Below, one piece after another: positions 3,390 through 32,287 of a DNA stretch of 64,000 bases (positions are counted from its first letter, which is position 1; each line of letters opens with the position of its first letter). The position numbers were made by a program, and so were the translations under genes. The notes under the pieces are model-generated. The model did no database searches, was not told the origin of the DNA, and saw nothing but the letters and a program-made list of their open reading frames with translations. The DNA comes from Minisyncoccia bacterium. GTDB lineage: Bacteria > Patescibacteriota > Minisyncoccia > Phycocordibacterales > Phycocordibacteraceae. The stretch lies in contig JBBQUV010000001.1 in the NCBI GenBank assembly GCA_038212075.1, positions 35,200 through 99,199 of the forward strand. The letters are read 5' to 3'.

Positions 3390-3701
3390 ATGAAGAAACT
3401 TGCTTATCTCGGTGCGTCCTTTGCTCTTCCAATGCTCGCCTTTGCGCAGGCTAGTGGAGAAAACGCTTCGCAATTTTTTGACAACATAAAAACAAATATT
3501 GTTAACCCTATTATCACGCTTATCGCACTTGCCGCATTCGTAGTGTTTATATGGGGCGTTGTGGAATTTATTCGCAGTGCTGACGACGCGGAGAAGCGAG
3601 GAACCGGCCAACAGCATATGATATGGGGTATTGCCGGTCTCGTTATTATCTTTGGGGCAAACGCTATCATCGCTATTTTAAAAAATACATTTGGGTTGTA
3701 G
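3390..3701 (+). CDS. TrbC/VirB2-like small membrane protein, paralog 5
   Basis: The first 21 codons are nearly identical in nucleotide sequence to paralog 4; two TM helices, loop SADDAEKRGTGQQ. Confidence 0.65.
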   Translation: MKKLAYLGASFALPMLAFAQASGENASQFFDNIKTNIVNPIITLIALAAFVVFIWGVVEFIRSADDAEKRGTGQQHMIWGIAGLVIIFGANAIIAILKNTFGL

Positions 3702-3765
3702 AAAAAAAGAAGACCCGACGCTGTTGCGTAAGGTCTTCAAGGTGTTGACCCACTTGGGTCAAAGA

Positions 3766-5963: not shown

Positions 5964-6039
5964 TACTATGTGACGAGGTGGCTCGGTCACGAGTTGCGGA
6001 CGGATTGCTCCAAGTATTCGCAATCCGTCTCGCACTCTC

Positions 6040-6124
6040 GACCCGGGCTCGCCGTTGCTTCGCAACAAGGCTGTGCCTTTCGAGTCTCACACGCACGACG
6101 CGCAGGCGTCGTGCTCCTCGGCAC
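6040..6124 (+). repeat. structured element with an inverted copy of the tRNA-Leu(TAA) T-arm and acceptor 3' end, plus a hairpin insertion
   Basis: CTCGCCGT, a hairpin, GCTGTGCC, TTCGAGTCTCAC (matches the T-loop/stem of the adjacent minus-strand tRNA), hairpin gcacgacgcgcaggcgtcgtgc, then TCCTCGGCA (acceptor 3' side). Same layout as the elements at 13427-13505 and 29165-29277. Confidence 0.5.
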
Positions 6125-6147
6125 ATAACTGCGCTTCGCTTGCTCTG

Positions 6148-6236
6148 TGCCGAGGGTGAGACTCGAACTCACATGAGGTGTTTAAAGACCTCTAGGGATT
6201 TTAAGTCCCCTACGTCTACCATTCCGTCACCTCGGC
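6148..6236 (-). tRNA. tRNA-Leu (anticodon TAA)
   Basis: Acceptor GCCGAGG/CCTCGGC, anticodon stem GGGGA/TCCCT with loop CTTAAAA, long variable arm, T-loop TTCGAGT. Confidence 0.8.
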
Positions 6237-13322: not shown

Positions 13323-13396
13323 GGGTCCATCGTATAATGGTAGTACAGCGGCCTCCAAATCCGCTAGCGTAGGTTCGATTCCTACTGGGCCCGCCA
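13323..13396 (+). tRNA. tRNA-Trp (anticodon CCA), with encoded 3' CCA
   Basis: Acceptor GGGTCCA/TGGGCCC, anticodon loop CTCCAAA, T-arm GTAGG-TTCGATT-CCTAC. The anticodon stem has a C-T mismatch at its base. Confidence 0.7.
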
Positions 13397-13402
13397 ATGA
13401 GA

Positions 13403-13427
13403 AACGCCGGAAGGCGTTTTCTCTTTT
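13403..13427 (+). terminator. rho-independent terminator after tRNA-Trp
   Basis: aacgcc-ggaa-ggcgtt followed by ttctctttt. Confidence 0.6.
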
Positions 13428-13505
13428 GGTGGGCCCAAGCAGGCGTGGGGCGCCTGCGTGTAGGAATCGAATGCCGGAGCGCGACGGCGCGAGGCGGGGT
13501 CGCGG
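13427..13505 (+). repeat. structured element with an inverted copy of the tRNA-Trp acceptor 3' end and T-arm, plus a hairpin
   Basis: TGGTGGGCCCA (reverse complement of the tRNA 3' end), hairpin caggcg-tgggg-cgcctg, GTAGGAATCGAA (reverse complement of the T-loop/stem), then GCCGGAGC and ACGGCGAGGCGGGG, motifs shared with the elements at 6040 and 29165. Confidence 0.5.
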
Positions 13506-13647
13506 AATTTTCTAGCAAGAAAATATCCGTGACCGCAAAGCGGAACCGTAGAATCTACAGGATTTGATAAGCGTACTCGCGGTCCTGCTGGGCTCGCCCT
13601 TGTGGGCAACCTACATCTCTTCAGATTTTGTGAGCTACAATATACAT

Positions 13648-16476: not shown

Positions 16477-16519
16477 CTAGAAAACTTTGCATGTAGTGCG
16501 TGATACAATCTCTGTAATT

Positions 16520-17503
16520 ATGGATGCGGTGAAATATCAGGAACCAACGCGCTACGACTCTGTCTACTGGGTAGACACCGAGCGTATTAAGCCAAACCCG
16601 TACCAGCCGCGTAAAGAATTTGATGAAGAGCATTTGAAGTCGCTCGCTGAATCTATTCGTCAGTACGGGATTCTTCAGCCACTTACGGTCACGCGAATGG
16701 AAGTGTCTAAAGAAGATGGAGGCCTGCAAAGCGAATACGAACTTATTGCCGGTGAGCGTCGTCTTCGCGCGGCAAAATTGATTGGACTACGCCAAGTGCC
16801 CGTGGTTATTCGCCAAGGCGAACAGTCAAGCAAAATGAAGCTAGAGCTTGCGATTATTGAGAACCTTCAGCGCGAAGATTTAAATGCGATTGATCGCTCC
16901 AAAGCGCTTGCTCAGCTCGCAACTGAATTTGGACTTACGCACGCAGAAATCGGCGCAAAAGTAGGGAAGAGCCGTGAATTTGTGAGTAACTCTATTCGTC
17001 TTCTTGGGCTTCCCGAAGAAATTCAGCAAGCGGTGGTTGGAAAAGAAATTTCAGAAGGGCACGCCCGTGCACTCCTGATGTTGAACAATCGACCGGAAGA
17101 AATGAAGACACTTTTCCGCGATATGGTGCTCAGAAAAACCTCGGTTCGTATGGCAGAACAGCTTGCACGTCGTATCGCACAGGACAAAATTAGGAAGCAC
17201 AACAAAACACCGGAAATGATGGAGATTGAAAAATCTCTTACGGAAACACTTGGTACGCGTGTGGTTATTGAAAACCGCCCACAAGGCGGCCGTCTCCTTA
17301 TTGAATTTTTCTCTCCCGAAGACCTTTCCAATATCATTGCCGCGTTTGCCGCAAAAGAAGAAGAAGCCGTTGCGCAGATTGTGGGCCCGGAAGCACAAGC
17401 CGCAAGCGACGCTGAAACAAGTGCGCAAGAAACAGCAACTGCACCAGTGGTTTCAGACAAACCAGAAGAAGATTTGTATTCGGTGAGTAATTTTAGCGTC
17501 TAG
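16520..17503 (+). CDS. parB: chromosome partitioning protein ParB/Spo0J
   Basis: ParB box IAGERRLRAAK, HTH region, acidic C-terminal tail; an internal Met was chosen as the start. Confidence 0.8.
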   Translation: MDAVKYQEPTRYDSVYWVDTERIKPNPYQPRKEFDEEHLKSLAESIRQYGILQPLTVTRMEVSKEDGGLQSEYELIAGERRLRAAKLIGLRQVPVVIRQGEQSSKMKLELAIIENLQREDLNAIDRSKALAQLATEFGLTHAEIGAKVGKSREFVSNSIRLLGLPEEIQQAVVGKEISEGHARALLMLNNRPEEMKTLFRDMVLRKTSVRMAEQLARRIAQDKIRKHNKTPEMMEIEKSLTETLGTRVVIENRPQGGRLLIEFFSPEDLSNIIAAFAAKEEEAVAQIVGPEAQAASDAETSAQETATAPVVSDKPEEDLYSVSNFSV

Positions 17504-28949: not shown

Positions 28950-29090
28950 GGGGGATCGTCTAACGGTAAGCAGAGCTTTCTGCCTGCGCTCGCTCGGAAC
29001 GGATAAGCAAAGCCTCATCCTTTCCTCGCTCGCTTGGCGGTAGGACAGCGGCCTTTGAAGCCAGTGATACGATAGAAATGTTCGATAATT
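28950..29090 (+). pseudogene. pseudo-tRNA: partial duplicate of tRNA-Gln (5' half and anticodon arm) split by a ~64-nt insertion, lacking T-arm and acceptor 3' strand
   Basis: GGGGGATCGTCTAACGGTA and GGACAGCGGCCTTTGAAGCC are identical to the downstream tRNA-Gln but are separated by an insert. The 3' portion diverges (AGTGATACGATAGAAATGTTCGATAATTT). Confidence 0.6.
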
Positions 29091-29092
29091 TT

Positions 29093-29161
29093 GGGGGATC
29101 GTCTAACGGTAGGACAGCGGCCTTTGAAGCCGTTAATTTTGGTTCGATTCCAAGTCCCCCA
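29093..29161 (+). tRNA. tRNA-Gln (anticodon TTG)
   Basis: Acceptor GGGGGAT/GTCCCCC, anticodon stem GCGGC/GCCGT with loop CTTTGAA, T-arm TTGG-TTCGATT-CCAA, discriminator A. Confidence 0.75.
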
Positions 29162-29164
29162 GCA

Positions 29165-29277
29165 AAAATGTGCGGAGCAGATTTTAGTGCGGGGAAGCGA
29201 GACGTCTGCACGTCTCGTGTCTTGGAATCGAACGCCGGAGCATGTTCCATTCAGCAGAATGGAACGGCGAGGCGGTG
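29165..29277 (+). repeat. structured element with an inverted copy of the tRNA-Gln T-arm, plus hairpins
   Basis: Hairpin cgagacgtctgcacgtctcg, CTTGGAATCGAA (reverse complement of the tRNA-Gln T-loop/stem), CGCCGGAGC, hairpin ttccattcagcagaatggaa, and ACGGCGAGGCGGTG. Shares motifs with the elements at 6040 and 13427. Confidence 0.5.
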
Positions 29278-29391
29278 CTCGACCAAAGTTTCTTATGAGC
29301 GAAGCGAATTAGAAACTTGAAGTGCTCTTGTGGTATAGACCATTACCGAGCGACGGCGAGGTAGTGAGTTGAAGGAGATAAGTGTAATCAC

Positions 29392-29409
29392 GGTCCAAGT
29401 TCCCCAGCA
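29392..29409 (+). repeat. direct repeat of the tRNA-Gln 3' terminus (att-like)
   Basis: GGTCCAAGTTCCCCAGCA compared with the tRNA 3' end ATTCCAAGTCCCCCAGCA (16/18 identical), about 230 bp downstream of the tRNA. Confidence 0.5.
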
Positions 29410-29508
29410 AATTAGGACTAAGCACGTATGAGGGTTCCATTTGCGTTGCAGCGAAGTCCTTTTTGTTCAGGTCGTTGTAATTAACGCTTTGTCAAGTTAT
29501 AGTAAGTC

Positions 29509-29693: not shown

Positions 29694-30620
29694 ATGAAAA
29701 ACTACTATCGCATAATGCTTGGACGAAAAAGTAGCCACGCTGATGAGGCACATAAGGGCAATTTCGTTGCGGCGGGCTTCATTAAAGACAAGGACCTCAC
29801 GCGTCACCTACCTGACAATTGGCGTGATTTTAATAAAGAATTCATCCCATTATTTCTTGATCAGAATCCTGAAAAGACAAAGATATCAGCGGGTCTCGCG
29901 TGCGGAATGCTCTGGACTGTCGCTAAGGGGGTTTTGGTGGGAGACATAGTGCTCTGCCCGGATGGTAAGGGTAGTTACTACGCAGGCGAGGTTACTGGCG
30001 AGTATGAATATCATAAGGGCGAAACGTTGCCGCATCGTCGGTCGGTTCGTTGGTTCACTCGTGCCATCTCACGTGACGAAATGAGCGAACCACTCAAGAA
30101 TTCAGCAGGTTCGATTGGTACGGTCAGCAATATAACGAAATATGCGGAGGAAATTGAGGCGCTAATTTCCGGCAGTCTTCCTGCCTCAATCATTTCGACT
30201 GATGCGACCATTGAAGACCCAAGCGAATTCGCGCTTGAAAAACATTTGGAGGACTTTCTTGTTCAAAACTGGCATGGCACAGAGTTAGGTAAGCGATTCG
30301 ATATTTATGAAGAGGATGGTGAAAAGGTTGGGCAACAATACCCAAGCGATACCGGTCCCATTGATATTCTCGCTATCAGTAAAGACAAAAAAGAGATAGC
30401 TGTCATCGAGCTCAAAAAAGGTCGTGCAAGTGATGTGGTCGTGGGACAAGTTCAACGATACATGGGGTATGTGAAAGAAGAATTAGCTGAAGACAATCAG
30501 TCCGTGCGAGGCATCATCATTGCGTTCGAGAATGATGTCAAAATAAATCGTGCCCTCTCTGTTGCTCCGAACATTGAGTTCTACACCTACAAAATCCACT
30601 TTAAGCTAGAGAAAAAATAA
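29694..30620 (+). CDS. two-domain protein: N-terminal unknown domain plus a C-terminal PD-(D/E)xK nuclease-fold domain (restriction-endonuclease-like)
   Basis: C-terminal GPIDILAISKDKKEIAVIELKKG.....GQVQRYMGYV, a D...E-L-K nuclease signature with a downstream Q..Y segment. It starts 2 nt after the xis-like gene. Confidence 0.55.
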   Translation: MKNYYRIMLGRKSSHADEAHKGNFVAAGFIKDKDLTRHLPDNWRDFNKEFIPLFLDQNPEKTKISAGLACGMLWTVAKGVLVGDIVLCPDGKGSYYAGEVTGEYEYHKGETLPHRRSVRWFTRAISRDEMSEPLKNSAGSIGTVSNITKYAEEIEALISGSLPASIISTDATIEDPSEFALEKHLEDFLVQNWHGTELGKRFDIYEEDGEKVGQQYPSDTGPIDILAISKDKKEIAVIELKKGRASDVVVGQVQRYMGYVKEELAEDNQSVRGIIIAFENDVKINRALSVAPNIEFYTYKIHFKLEKK

Positions 30621-30758
30621 TTTCATGAGCAAAAGAGAAACAAATTCAAGTATGTCCAAAGAGCAGGAGCGAGCAGAGGATTGATGTGGTTGAATTAAAC
30701 AAGTTTGCAAAGCTATATAAAAAAGAATTAAAACATTTTATAAATTAACTTTAATATT

Positions 30759-31376
30759 ATGGATTCAAAAGAAACAAAAAATATATGGATAGTGGTCGTT
30801 GTTATTGCATTGATAGCGGGTGCATATTATTTTGGCACAGCATCAAAAAATCAAACTGGAGTTACAGATAATACACAAGATACTAATACGCTTACACCCA
30901 CCCAAGAAACTGCCACGCAACAAAATCAGGTTGCTCCAGTTGTTACCATTAAACCAAAAGTTACTGTCCCACAGAATACATACACTAACTTCGAGTTGTC
31001 AGAAAATCCAAAATATTTATTTAGCAAAGATTTTAACCCAAATAAAGCAAAGGTCTTTGGAGTTGGTATAGGTGACTTAAGAAGTAATATTACTTCTATA
31101 GTACCTCAACAAGAATACGGAAGCTGGGTAAGAACAACAAATTCAACTGCATATCGTATAGTAAATGGCATAGTGGTGGAAATAGCGCTTAATAATGATG
31201 GCATAGCTAATCTTTTTAGGACAGATGAAATTATTATAAAATTCGGTCAATCAGACCAAACTAAAACAACCGGTAACCCTCCATACACTACGACCACCTA
31301 TTACTACGTAAACAGAGGCTTGGTTGTTTATGATTATGGATCATCGGGTATAAAAGTAAATATTATTGGCAACTAA
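30759..31376 (+). CDS. hypothetical membrane-anchored/secreted protein (AT-rich gene)
   Basis: 205 aa, N-terminal TM helix, Thr/Gln-rich linker. Noticeably lower GC than the flanking DNA. Confidence 0.45.
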   Translation: MDSKETKNIWIVVVVIALIAGAYYFGTASKNQTGVTDNTQDTNTLTPTQETATQQNQVAPVVTIKPKVTVPQNTYTNFELSENPKYLFSKDFNPNKAKVFGVGIGDLRSNITSIVPQQEYGSWVRTTNSTAYRIVNGIVVEIALNNDGIANLFRTDEIIIKFGQSDQTKTTGNPPYTTTTYYYVNRGLVVYDYGSSGIKVNIIGN

Positions 31377-31381
31377 AATGT

Positions 31382-32287
31382 TTGAACAGAGCTGAGTTTT
31401 TTATGTCTATACCAGAAAACTTTTTTAAAGATTCGAACGGAATAATCAAGTGGCACCAAGAACACCACCCGAAATCTTACGAAAGCTATTTTCTGATAAA
31501 AGAGAAAGTTAAAAATTCCAAATTTTCTGGCTCGGCTGGACTTCTGCGAAATTTAGAAGGAAATAAAACTGTCACAGGATTTCTGTCTTTTTTGACTGAA
31601 ATAAATCTTGCCAATTTGTTTTTGGATAAGAAGGTTAAAGATTTGTCTTATGAACCGAAACATATGTCTGGTGTTGATTTCTCTTTTAATGACATCGCGA
31701 TATCTGTTAAGAATCTCCACCCAAAAAATTACGAAAAGAGCGAACAACAAGTAATAGATGCATTTCGTACGGCAGGAGGCGGTAAAACGAGTTTGACTCA
31801 TAAAAACTTCTCCAGTATTGCTATTGAAGTTAAAAAAACTGAAATGGGTACTTATGGCTGGGAGAGGTTAGAAACTGGACACAGCGGATTTCTCGATAGT
31901 GATTTATACGAAATGTCTGCTCCATTAAATTACATTGGAAAATTTGAACAGTCAGATATAAAAAATAACAAAAGGGTCTTATTTTTCTTTATTCAATCAA
32001 GTGATTTTGCACAGTATTATATTCAAGATATCGTAATTTGGTATTTTGGATATCCTGTTGAAAAGTATCAACCAATTTTTCAGAACGATATGAATTGGTA
32101 TAACAAGCTTCTAAAAACACCTCCTAAGAAAAATAATATTGATGCAATCGTATTTATGTATGCACCCAATACCTTATTGAGCTGGCCACTTGGCTGTTTG
32201 GGTGATGTATCAGATAAGGCGGCACGATTACAGATTTATGCGAAGGAAAAATCTTTTTCCGAACAGATAAAATTAATTTTATCTTAA
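31382..32287 (+). CDS. hypothetical protein (AT-rich gene)
   Basis: 301 aa, Lys/Asn-rich, no recognised motif; lies 6 nt after the previous gene, so likely an operon. Confidence 0.45.
   Translation: MNRAEFFMSIPENFFKDSNGIIKWHQEHHPKSYESYFLIKEKVKNSKFSGSAGLLRNLEGNKTVTGFLSFLTEINLANLFLDKKVKDLSYEPKHMSGVDFSFNDIAISVKNLHPKNYEKSEQQVIDAFRTAGGGKTSLTHKNFSSIAIEVKKTEMGTYGWERLETGHSGFLDSDLYEMSAPLNYIGKFEQSDIKNNKRVLFFFIQSSDFAQYYIQDIVIWYFGYPVEKYQPIFQNDMNWYNKLLKTPPKKNNIDAIVFMYAPNTLLSWPLGCLGDVSDKAARLQIYAKEKSFSEQIKLILS

Follow-up and report, generated by a model that had tools for sequence, protein, structure and literature searches.

We describe here a recurrent structured element that lies behind tRNA genes in a 64,000-nucleotide stretch of DNA from a Minisyncoccia bacterium (contig JBBQUV010000001.1 of assembly GCA_038212075.1, positions 35,200 to 99,199), referred to throughout as the window. 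The element is a structured, non-coding cassette that is strictly specific for the 3′ ends of tRNA and transfer-messenger RNA (tmRNA) genes and polymorphic among related genomes. Its insertion leaves a complete tRNA gene beside the cassette and shifts the former 3′ end and trailer downstream, and new units are added on the tRNA side while older distal units decay. Taking the evidence together, we lean, with moderate confidence, toward a non-autonomous mobile cassette that inserts at the tRNA T-loop/3′ end, keeps the tRNA intact, and is moved by an activity acting in trans.

Architecture of the Element and Its Copies in the Window

Read along the direction of the tRNA, the order is tRNA gene, short trailer, arm B, core K, an optional module, and arm U′, with units of 108-330 bp (typically about 110-250 bp for the cassette) and no open reading frame (ORF) inside them. 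B repeats, in inverted form, the T-loop of its own tRNA and the 3′ strands of the T-stem and acceptor; it is split by the GC-rich hairpin P2 and runs from the complement of the acceptor 3′ strand through P2 to the complement of the T-stem 3′ strand and whole T-loop. K is a conserved three-branch folded core with a putative tandem G·A internal loop, comprising the block GCCGGAGC, the P1 hairpin, the block GCGAGGCGG, and a helix enclosing a hairpin (Pc/P0), while U′ is a second copy of the last 15-22 nt of the tRNA, starting inside the T-loop. We denote by A the 3′ part of the tRNA (T-loop through 3′ end), which is the source of both copies.

Seven tRNA genes are present in the window according to ARAGORN and Rfam, and three of these (tRNA-Trp, tRNA-Gln and tRNA-Leu(taa)) carry the element, in each case downstream and on the same strand. 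A covariance model built solely from copies in other genomes matches the window at exactly these three places and none besides (13425-13547 and 29183-29306 on the plus strand, 5969-6128 on the minus strand), with scores of 58.4 bits for Gln, 56.9 for Leu and 43 for Trp, and E-values of 2e-14, 5e-14 and, for Trp, 2.6e-10. The parts of the Trp copy, all on the plus strand, are:

13323-13396: tRNA-Trp(cca), called by ARAGORN and by Rfam (tRNA)
13374-13380, 13381-13385 and 13386-13392: T-loop, T-stem 3′ strand and acceptor 3′ strand of tRNA-Trp
13393 and 13394-13396: discriminator and encoded CCA of tRNA-Trp
13397-13598: full extent of the Trp copy
13401-13427: intrinsic terminator-like hairpin and T-run between tRNA-Trp and the element core
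13427-13438: B acceptor arm, TGG-T-GGGCCCA-A, complement of CCA, discriminator and acceptor 3′ strand (arm match 14/15)
13439-13457: P2 hairpin, GCAGGCG / tgggg / CGCCTGC, at the T-stem/acceptor junction of the inverted copy
13460-13471: B T arm, GTAGGAATCGAA, exact complement of the T-loop and T-stem 3′ strand
13472-13534: conserved core K, by covariance-model match and covariation
13473-13480, 13481-13490 and 13489-13497: block GCCGGAGC, short P1 hairpin and block GCGAGGCGG of K
13498-13505 and 13526-13534: closing helix of K, GGTCGCGG/TCCGTGACC
13506-13525: P0 hairpin
13535-13582: optional extra module, ending in a small hairpin, GCG-TACT-CGC, plus GG (13572-13582)
13583-13598: U′, TCCTgCTGGGCtCGCC, degenerate direct repeat of the tRNA-Trp 3′ end (14/16)

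The Gln copy lies on the plus strand:

29092-29163: tRNA-Gln(ttg), called by ARAGORN and Rfam
29164-29411: full extent of the Gln copy
29164-29187: trailer
about 29188-29196: B acceptor arm
29198-29217: P2
29221-29232: B T arm
29234-29241, 29242-29265 and 29267-29275: core, with block GCCGGAGC, P1 and block GCGAGGCGG
about 29286-29318: P0 hairpin, with a degenerate closing helix
29321-29393: extra module, ending GTG-TAAT-CAC plus GG
29394-29411: U′ (17/18)

The Leu(taa) copy, of the compact canonical form, lies on the minus strand (plus-strand coordinates given):

6147-6236: tRNA-Leu(taa), called by ARAGORN and Rfam
5970-6146: full extent of the Leu copy
6126-6146: trailer
6116-6125: B acceptor arm
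6094-6113: P2
6079-6090: B T arm
6066-6077 and 6045-6055: diverged core motifs, GCTGTGCC and GGGCTCGCC
6056-6065: P1
5986-6044: closing helix and P0
5970-5985: U′, degenerate, with small deletions

A preliminary description of this DNA had placed structured segments with an antisense copy of the T-arm and acceptor behind these same three tRNAs, and all of them are present (layouts at 29188-29275 for Gln and 6045-6125, minus strand, for Leu). The extent it gave for the Trp copy, 13427-13505, takes in B and two thirds of K but falls short of the element, which runs over 13397-13598. Its layout was also incomplete in that it missed the U′ direct repeats (13583-13598, 29394-29411 and 5970-5985) and with them the logic of insertion, which are the most informative features. 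ORFs do overlap the motifs in the window; these are spurious, being antisense to the tRNA genes as well, and the motifs are not explained by an overlapping protein gene, an alternative that the preliminary description had named.

The Trp copy represents a short-P1 subtype of the core, with P2 and a near-perfect B, and in its acceptor arm a C, not a T, stands opposite G69, such that the arm complements the 3′ strand rather than the tRNA's own 5′ strand. The inverted copy of Leu matches its tRNA perfectly over 12 + 10 nt. Among the three window copies, the extra module (48-73 nt) is found only in Trp and Gln, both of which have a decayed U′, and it recurs ahead of the repeat behind other tRNAs (loci L022 Ala, L111 Ser, L006 Gln, L079 Arg and L257 Trp). 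Separately, we note that part of the D-loop/anticodon-stem region of tRNA-Gln is duplicated (ggtaggacagcggcctttgaagcc, 29033-29066) about 50 nt upstream of the real gene, which suggests an earlier rearrangement at this locus.

A Widespread Family in Patescibacteria

Scanning one genome per bacterial or archaeal species with the 22-base, two-block motif CCGCCTCGC-N5-35-GCTCCGGCNTTCGA recovered at least 120 loci, about seven of which are chance hits in GC-rich coding DNA. Among the matches listed, nearly all other loci belong to metagenome-assembled genomes (MAGs) of Patescibacteria (Saccharibacteria, Paceibacterota/Parcubacteria, Uhrbacteria and Magasanikbacteria), and five real matches are labeled Elusimicrobiota or Gammaproteobacteria, labels that may reflect binning errors. 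In these same matches, 91 of 126 motif hits lie no more than 260 nt (mostly 25-100 nt) past a tRNA 3′ end, always in the same relative orientation, and some adjoin the 3′ ends of tmRNA genes (L082, L090, L095 and L118). As the hairpin sequences differ between copies, MAFFT/RNAalifold on all of them gave a poor structure, and we instead seeded the covariance model with an alignment of 11 length-matched copies from other genomes. This model finds 125 copies in 100 sources (the window and 99 fetched loci), with E-values down to 1e-40 outside the window. A copy lies downstream, on the same strand, of 100 of the 188 tRNA genes in these sources, which span 19 amino-acid identities, although this proportion is biased because each locus was fetched via a copy; of the bystander tRNAs, roughly one in five carries one.

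The element corresponds to no family that we could find. Rfam 15 at its gathering threshold returns only the seven tRNAs in the window, nothing overlaps the element at E ≤ 1 on three canonical loci, and ten orphan loci (of a kind described below) yield tRNAs only. A literature search found no description of the element, and a survey of introns in Patescibacteria tRNA genes is silent on anything of the kind (PMC13011429). Looking up the L33 protein of the window, as a route to sister contigs, gave no exact record.

These numbers bear directly on the simplest alternative, namely that the resemblances arise by chance, or from plain decaying inverted duplications of tRNA 3′ ends that share no common element. 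T-loops common to all tRNAs do inflate the similarity: the inverted arms have a mean identity of 80% with their own tRNA against a non-cognate baseline of 62% with other tRNAs. This alternative nevertheless has a negligible probability in view of the covariance-model E-values (1e-10 to 1e-14 in the window and to 1e-40 elsewhere), the number of loci that share the two-block motif, and a covariation above that of all 500 shuffles, as discussed below. The preliminary description took the three segments for functional elements of one family or for a mobile repeat that targets tRNAs, and not for chance; this proposal is borne out by the number of loci, by compensatory change, and by presence/absence polymorphism, with the covariance model and the scan of relatives yielding both further instances and compensatory substitutions.

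Evidence for Insertion and Movement

In the common form, the direct repeat begins at position 56/57 of the T-loop, 19-21 nt short of the tRNA end; where the extra module is present, it begins at 59/60, 16-17 nt short of that end. It usually stops where the tRNA does, and many of the repeats are perfect, a few loci having long near-perfect repeats of 57, 63 and 81 bp, and all adjacent tRNAs are called intact by ARAGORN. Used as a query on metagenomes, the tRNA-Trp 3′ end of the window recovered 26 loci with an identical 3′ end, of which 5 are filled (L248, L250, L255, L257 and L259), 17 are empty (tRNA, terminator, next gene), and 4 are too short to judge. Furthermore, the window bases past the U′ of the Trp copy (CTTGTGGG) match the trailer of the empty tRNA-Trp locus L241, which has a homologous downstream gene, and this identifies the Trp U′ as the displaced original 3′ end.

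Two of the filled loci, L250 and L259, hold two units in tandem. The order in L250 is tRNA, new trailer, first B, first K, displaced 3′ end, terminator, and an older decayed unit, and the terminator that follows the displaced 3′ end is near-identical to the one behind the tRNA-Trp of the window, which indicates that the newer unit joined on the tRNA side of a window-like arrangement. In line with such polarity, the unit nearest the tRNA outscores the distal unit in seven of nine tandem arrays. The exceptions are L259 and, more clearly, L055, in which a degenerate second unit (3553-3720), whose arms fit no neighboring tRNA, lies between tRNA-Glu and a canonical unit.

Related cassettes are also found behind different tRNAs in different genomes, with B and K at least 80% identical in the pairs Leu/Trp, Gly/Phe, Tyr/Val, Gly/Arg and Arg/Pro. 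For Tyr/Val, both members have the same B acceptor arm, which fits neither tRNA, and each flanking repeat fits its own tRNA. L007 and L041, which belong to the same MAG, have an identical block of trailer, B and K set in different flanks, and the two copies in L094 have a near-identical Pc/P0 branch with different P1 and P2. Two species (L036 and L065) agree at 94-96% over B-K-U′ and at about 50-55% over the trailer and the 100-nt flanks, which are essentially unalignable. The identity of this pair over B and K together is 94%, and B and K are conserved at 92-94% against diverged flanks.

We also note a set of less regular copies. In L100, a 43-nt tandem duplication of P2, acceptor arm and trailer occurs within one unit, between B and tRNA-Phe. 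In six orphan copies (L029, L041, L046, L076, L084 and L085), B and U′ fit each other, and the upstream partner is a degenerate tRNA-like 3′ end that is called by neither ARAGORN nor Rfam. A common tandem GTCTCATTTGTCTCATTT repeat lies just upstream in L084 and L085.

The Arms as Copies of the tRNA Gene

In at least nine loci, B reproduces the T-loop, T-stem 3′ strand, acceptor 3′ strand and discriminator of its own tRNA perfectly (16/16), and its insert of 22-26 nt (ACGC...GCT) stands between positions 64/65 or 65/66. In L025 and L054, B runs on into trailer bases. Taken with its tracking of the complement of the 3′ strand, and not the real 5′ strand, this makes B an inverted copy of the gene at the DNA level.

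Comparing A, B and U′ over 698 positions, we find 106 at which A and U′ agree and B differs, 45 at which A and B agree and U′ differs, and none (out of 153 variable positions) at which B and U′ agree against A. This pattern is that of two independent, decaying copies of A, and it rejects a maintained RNA helix between B and U′ as the selected feature. The apparent "covariation" of the B/U′ helix reflects copying from different tRNAs rather than selection for pairing. Copying from different tRNAs cannot explain the covariation of P0, P1 and P2.

Conserved Fold and Folding Strand

The single-sequence folds agree with that of the alignment. In the predicted fold, the acceptor complement of B pairs with the acceptor strand of U′, with P2 branching off, and the complement of the T-stem and T-loop in B pairs with the start of U′, in a helix that holds two inner branches. 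The first consists of CGCC/GGCG, a small internal loop (GGA opposite GA, in which a tandem G·A is possible) and then P1, and the second is Pc/P0. Together with the tRNA end and the trailer, B folds into a single long, imperfect hairpin from which P2 branches to the side. In the alignment of 125 sequences, 89.7% of the cells are in standard pairs, compared to 62.7% in shuffles, and 39 of the 40 modeled base pairs have changed at both positions. The score for covariation reaches 0.50, compared to 0.135 in shuffles and at most 0.095 when the partners are slid by one to three columns, and it lies above all 500 shuffles. P2 (helix 1 of the model) has all nine of its pairs changed on both sides, with 95.6% of cells paired.

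The folding strand is the tRNA-sense strand, and the molecule could be either RNA or single-stranded DNA. The minimum free energy of this strand is the lower one in 119 of 125 copies, by a mean of 8.65 kcal/mol. Mismatches in the P0-P2 stems, counted in an orientation-neutral hairpin search and read on the sense strand, are G·U rather than A·C (15 vs 4) and G·A rather than C·U (29 vs 1), and one pair is G·U in 29 sequences and G-C or A-U in the rest. We consider these orientation-neutral counts and the energy comparison to be better evidence on the strand than the G·U counts in the covariance-model alignment (146 vs 97), which are biased because the model was fitted in the sense orientation. 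One observation points the other way: L036 and L065 differ by two recent substitutions in stems, and these allow wobble pairing on the antisense strand only. An antisense transcript resembling a tRNA 3′ half, one of the options raised in the preliminary description, is thus disfavored by the energies and by the G·U and G·A mismatches. Its other option, pairing of the element with the 3′ half of the tRNA in a precursor, is possible; the intrinsic terminator between the tRNA and its complement in the Trp copy weighs against it, as does the fact that B never covaries with U′ away from the tRNA (0/153).

A folded sense strand is also what would be expected if the element were a tRNA-like RNA of benefit to the host, with B-K-U′ transcribed with or just after the tRNA. 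In such an RNA, B and U′ would form an acceptor-like and a T-stem-like helix, P2 would sit where the D/anticodon body leaves, and K would replace the T-loop; it might serve in tRNA 3′-end processing (e.g., as an RNase P site), in a toggle between tRNA and U′ pairing, or as a stable small RNA. In addition to the energies, the mismatches and the conserved G·U pair, it is in line with this explanation that P2 lies exactly at the junction where a tRNA body leaves the acceptor/T helix, that B and K are so conserved against their flanks, that roughly half of the tRNAs in our (biased) sample carry a copy, and that a terminator-like site between tRNA and core is seen in only 17 of 91 units, which makes co-transcription plausible. 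However, a helix essential for this fold shows no compensatory change between B and U′, both arms visibly decay, including those in the window, and the Trp copy has a terminator before B, with no promoter-like site found. Most loci with the same tRNA-Trp 3′ end, moreover, do without the element, and the two L036/L065 substitutions fit the wrong strand. We regard a host-beneficial RNA, the main rival explanation and one that would be compatible with a mobile origin, as unlikely.

Searches for an Enzyme, an Autonomous Relative, or Another Origin

Clustering 791 neighboring ORFs (within 3 kb) gave no family present in more than 8 of about 113 loci, and no integrase was found near any examined copy. 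Genes of the YraN/UPF0102 family lie near element-bearing tRNAs in 8 of the approximately 113 loci (L013, L061 and six others), a recurrence that is probably plain synteny. The strict motif has no match in 2.9 million viral contigs. A looser motif matched 120 viral loci, but the covariance model found no copy in the 100 that were searched; we take these for chance matches and reject a phage origin. Apparent larger, autonomous versions, with 2.2-2.4 kb "repeats" in L061 and L077, turned out to be second tRNA genes or chance matches.

Group I introns are common in the tRNA genes of Patescibacteria (PMC13011429), and we also considered an intron in the T-loop. When upstream T-loop sites were joined to downstream U′ positions in every combination in orphan loci, none of the 850 constructs was called as a tRNA by ARAGORN, and Rfam gave no Intron_gpI match in the window, three canonical loci or ten orphan loci, and this candidate was rejected.

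A family of 120-238 aa ORFs adjoins tRNA genes, on the same strand, in five loci:

L012, 5457-6149
L083, 5903-6619
L070, 2187-2771
L005, 1721-2317
L038, 1870-2232

Most of these have an N-terminal helix-turn-helix (HTH) and all have a conserved LYWxEGxK...N(T/S)D motif, and the L012 member sits between tRNA-Glu and the B-K core. An assignment as a LAGLIDADG-type endonuclease is unsupported, with Pfam and PDB profile searches recognizing the HTH only, and the family is absent from the window.

The window itself has a low-GC, defense-like island directly downstream of the Gln copy (29694-32287, GC 0.41-0.43 compared to about 0.49), the first ORF of which (29694-30620) has a C-terminal segment that, by eye, resembles a PD-(D/E)XK/NucS-type nuclease. 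No integrase and no further tRNA-Gln repeat were found. We also note a minimum of the cumulative GC skew near 4-8 kb of the window and a ParB-like ORF at 16487-17503; a replication origin may lie in this stretch of DNA. Were that the case, the three tRNAs that carry the element would point along the direction of replication, and the sense strand would be the lagging-strand template.

These searches bear on the possibility that the elements are scars of integrase-mediated elements or prophages, with attL and attR brought side by side by deletion of the interior and the motifs being integrase arm sites. A direct repeat from T-loop to tRNA end is what integrases directed at tRNA and tmRNA genes classically leave behind, and the island behind the Gln copy would fit such a history. 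Yet random deletions would not leave a uniform compact size and a three-branch fold that is conserved, with covariation at 39 of 40 pairs; a hairpin-bearing inverted copy of the target is not known as a feature of att sites, and neither the neighborhoods of the copies (no integrase) nor the viral contigs (no strict motif) point to such a source. We consider this origin highly improbable.

Proposed Mechanism and Its Limitations

In the mechanism that we propose for a mobile cassette, the conserved fold would be the feature recognized by the trans-acting activity, for which a recombinase, an integrase of the casposase type or some other enzyme encoded elsewhere would be candidates. Folding would take place on the tRNA-sense strand, as single-stranded DNA or RNA, with B beside the tRNA end building a duplex that mimics the target's acceptor/T-arm helix. 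The direct repeat could then arise by crossover in a short identity block, in the manner of an integrase, in which case the element would bring the new 3′ end, or by staggered cuts at the T-loop and the tRNA end, as in casposon or CRISPR integration, in which case the repeat would come from the target. Judging from the sequences at hand, the Tyr/Val pair and the switching of targets favor a target-derived repeat, while the differing trailers that abut the discriminator fit either model. The com system for DNA uptake is conserved in the ultra-small bacteria of the Candidate Phyla Radiation (CPR, or Patescibacteria), and natural transformation occurs in Saccharibacteria (PMC10633639); by way of speculation, this makes the entry of single-stranded DNA a conceivable route.

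Several observations weigh against a mobile cassette. We identified no enzyme and no autonomous relative with a transposase, either in the 120 genome loci or in the viral contigs, and the three window cores are dissimilar to each other, which speaks against a recent burst in this genome. That B-K-U′ is so conserved beside diverged flanks could equally reflect recent transfer or selection for a host function, and the orphan copies (L029, L041 and L046) are not explained. The weakest point of the model is that, in many copies, B is perfect on both sides of P2: this is unlike plain cut-and-paste, and a templating or conversion step must be assumed to account for it.

It is conceivable, if rather doubtful, that the element represents something more novel: either a mobile element guided by structure or base-pairing that has no targeting protein encoded in cis, or an abundant, undescribed class of tRNA-like small RNAs. 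In the pairing-guided version, the split arms (guide, hairpin, guide) would read the last roughly 20 nt of the tRNA gene, polar insertion would duplicate this segment, and the arms would be rewritten upon the move to a new tRNA. In the small-RNA version, B-K-U′ would borrow the acceptor and T stems of the neighboring tRNA.

Comparison with Known Systems

K. Williams is reported to have sorted the integrative elements of tRNA and tmRNA genes into sublocation classes in 2002. Like tyrosine-integrase islands and prophages, the cassette takes as its target the stretch of tRNA and tmRNA genes between T-loop and 3′ end and keeps the tRNA whole, and it shares with integrative elements the displaced 3′ end as a direct repeat from the T-loop and the tandem accretion. 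Unlike these elements, it measures about 110-250 bp and not kilobases, has neither an integrase nor any other gene, carries a hairpin-split inverted copy of the target together with a conserved folded core, and is present as a single core lineage behind many different tRNAs.

Some casposons insert at the 3′ ends of tRNA genes with duplications of 14-15 bp, and CRISPR arrays add new units next to the leader with duplication of the repeat. The long duplication of a defined target and the polar arrays of the cassette are similar to such Cas1-type integration; however, no Cas1/casposase, polymerase or terminal inverted repeats are seen at cassette loci, the inserted unit is always the same structured element, and its 15-22 bp duplication is set by tRNA landmarks.

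The resemblance to integron attC and CTX-phage attP(+) sites lies in an imperfect palindrome with one active strand, in which structure is kept more than sequence and the hairpin rebuilds a double-stranded copy of the target with branches or bulges. The cassette differs from them in having no IntI/attI context and no R/L boxes, with the blocks GCCGGAGC and GCGAGGCGG rather than GTTRRRY, a tRNA T-loop rather than attI or dif as its target, and an additional conserved core domain. As with miniature inverted-repeat transposable elements (MITEs), repetitive extragenic palindromic sequences (REP/REPIN) and Rickettsia palindromic elements, it is short, non-coding, structured, multi-copy and non-autonomous. 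In contrast to these, it is strictly specific for tRNA/tmRNA 3′ ends, and its "inverted repeats" (B/U′) are copies of the target and not ends of the element. Its duplication measures 15-22 bp, sometimes 57-81 bp. We know of no related transposase-bearing element.

Among RNAs, B recalls a retroviral primer-binding site in complementing the last roughly 20 nt of a specific tRNA, and an acceptor/T-stem minihelix is possible between B and U′, its side arm placed where the tRNA body would be, which recalls an RNase P external-guide complex. The cassette differs from the tRNA mimics and 3′-end binders compared here (these two, the tRNA-like domain of tmRNA, viral tRNA-like structures and T-box leaders) in that the mimic has K in place of a T-loop, that it has no anticodon or specifier element, and that B copies the gene, including trailer bases (L025 and L054), and not the mature CCA-ended tRNA.

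Implications

Despite the very small size of CPR genomes, the cassette lies behind roughly one fifth to one half of the tRNA genes in the loci sampled; it is either an unusually successful selfish element or something useful. The cassette explains odd duplicates of tRNA 3′ ends and pseudo-tRNA fragments in CPR assemblies, and the covariance model and motif make its annotation easy. If it is mobile, it targets the T-loop, which is among the most conserved sequences in biology, with the gene undamaged and with no gene of its own; this would point to an uncharacterized integration activity, of possible interest for site-specific insertion tools. If instead it acts as an RNA, it would add a widespread class of tRNA-like RNAs to a phylum in which the RNA biology is already unusual (group I introns, PMC13011429).

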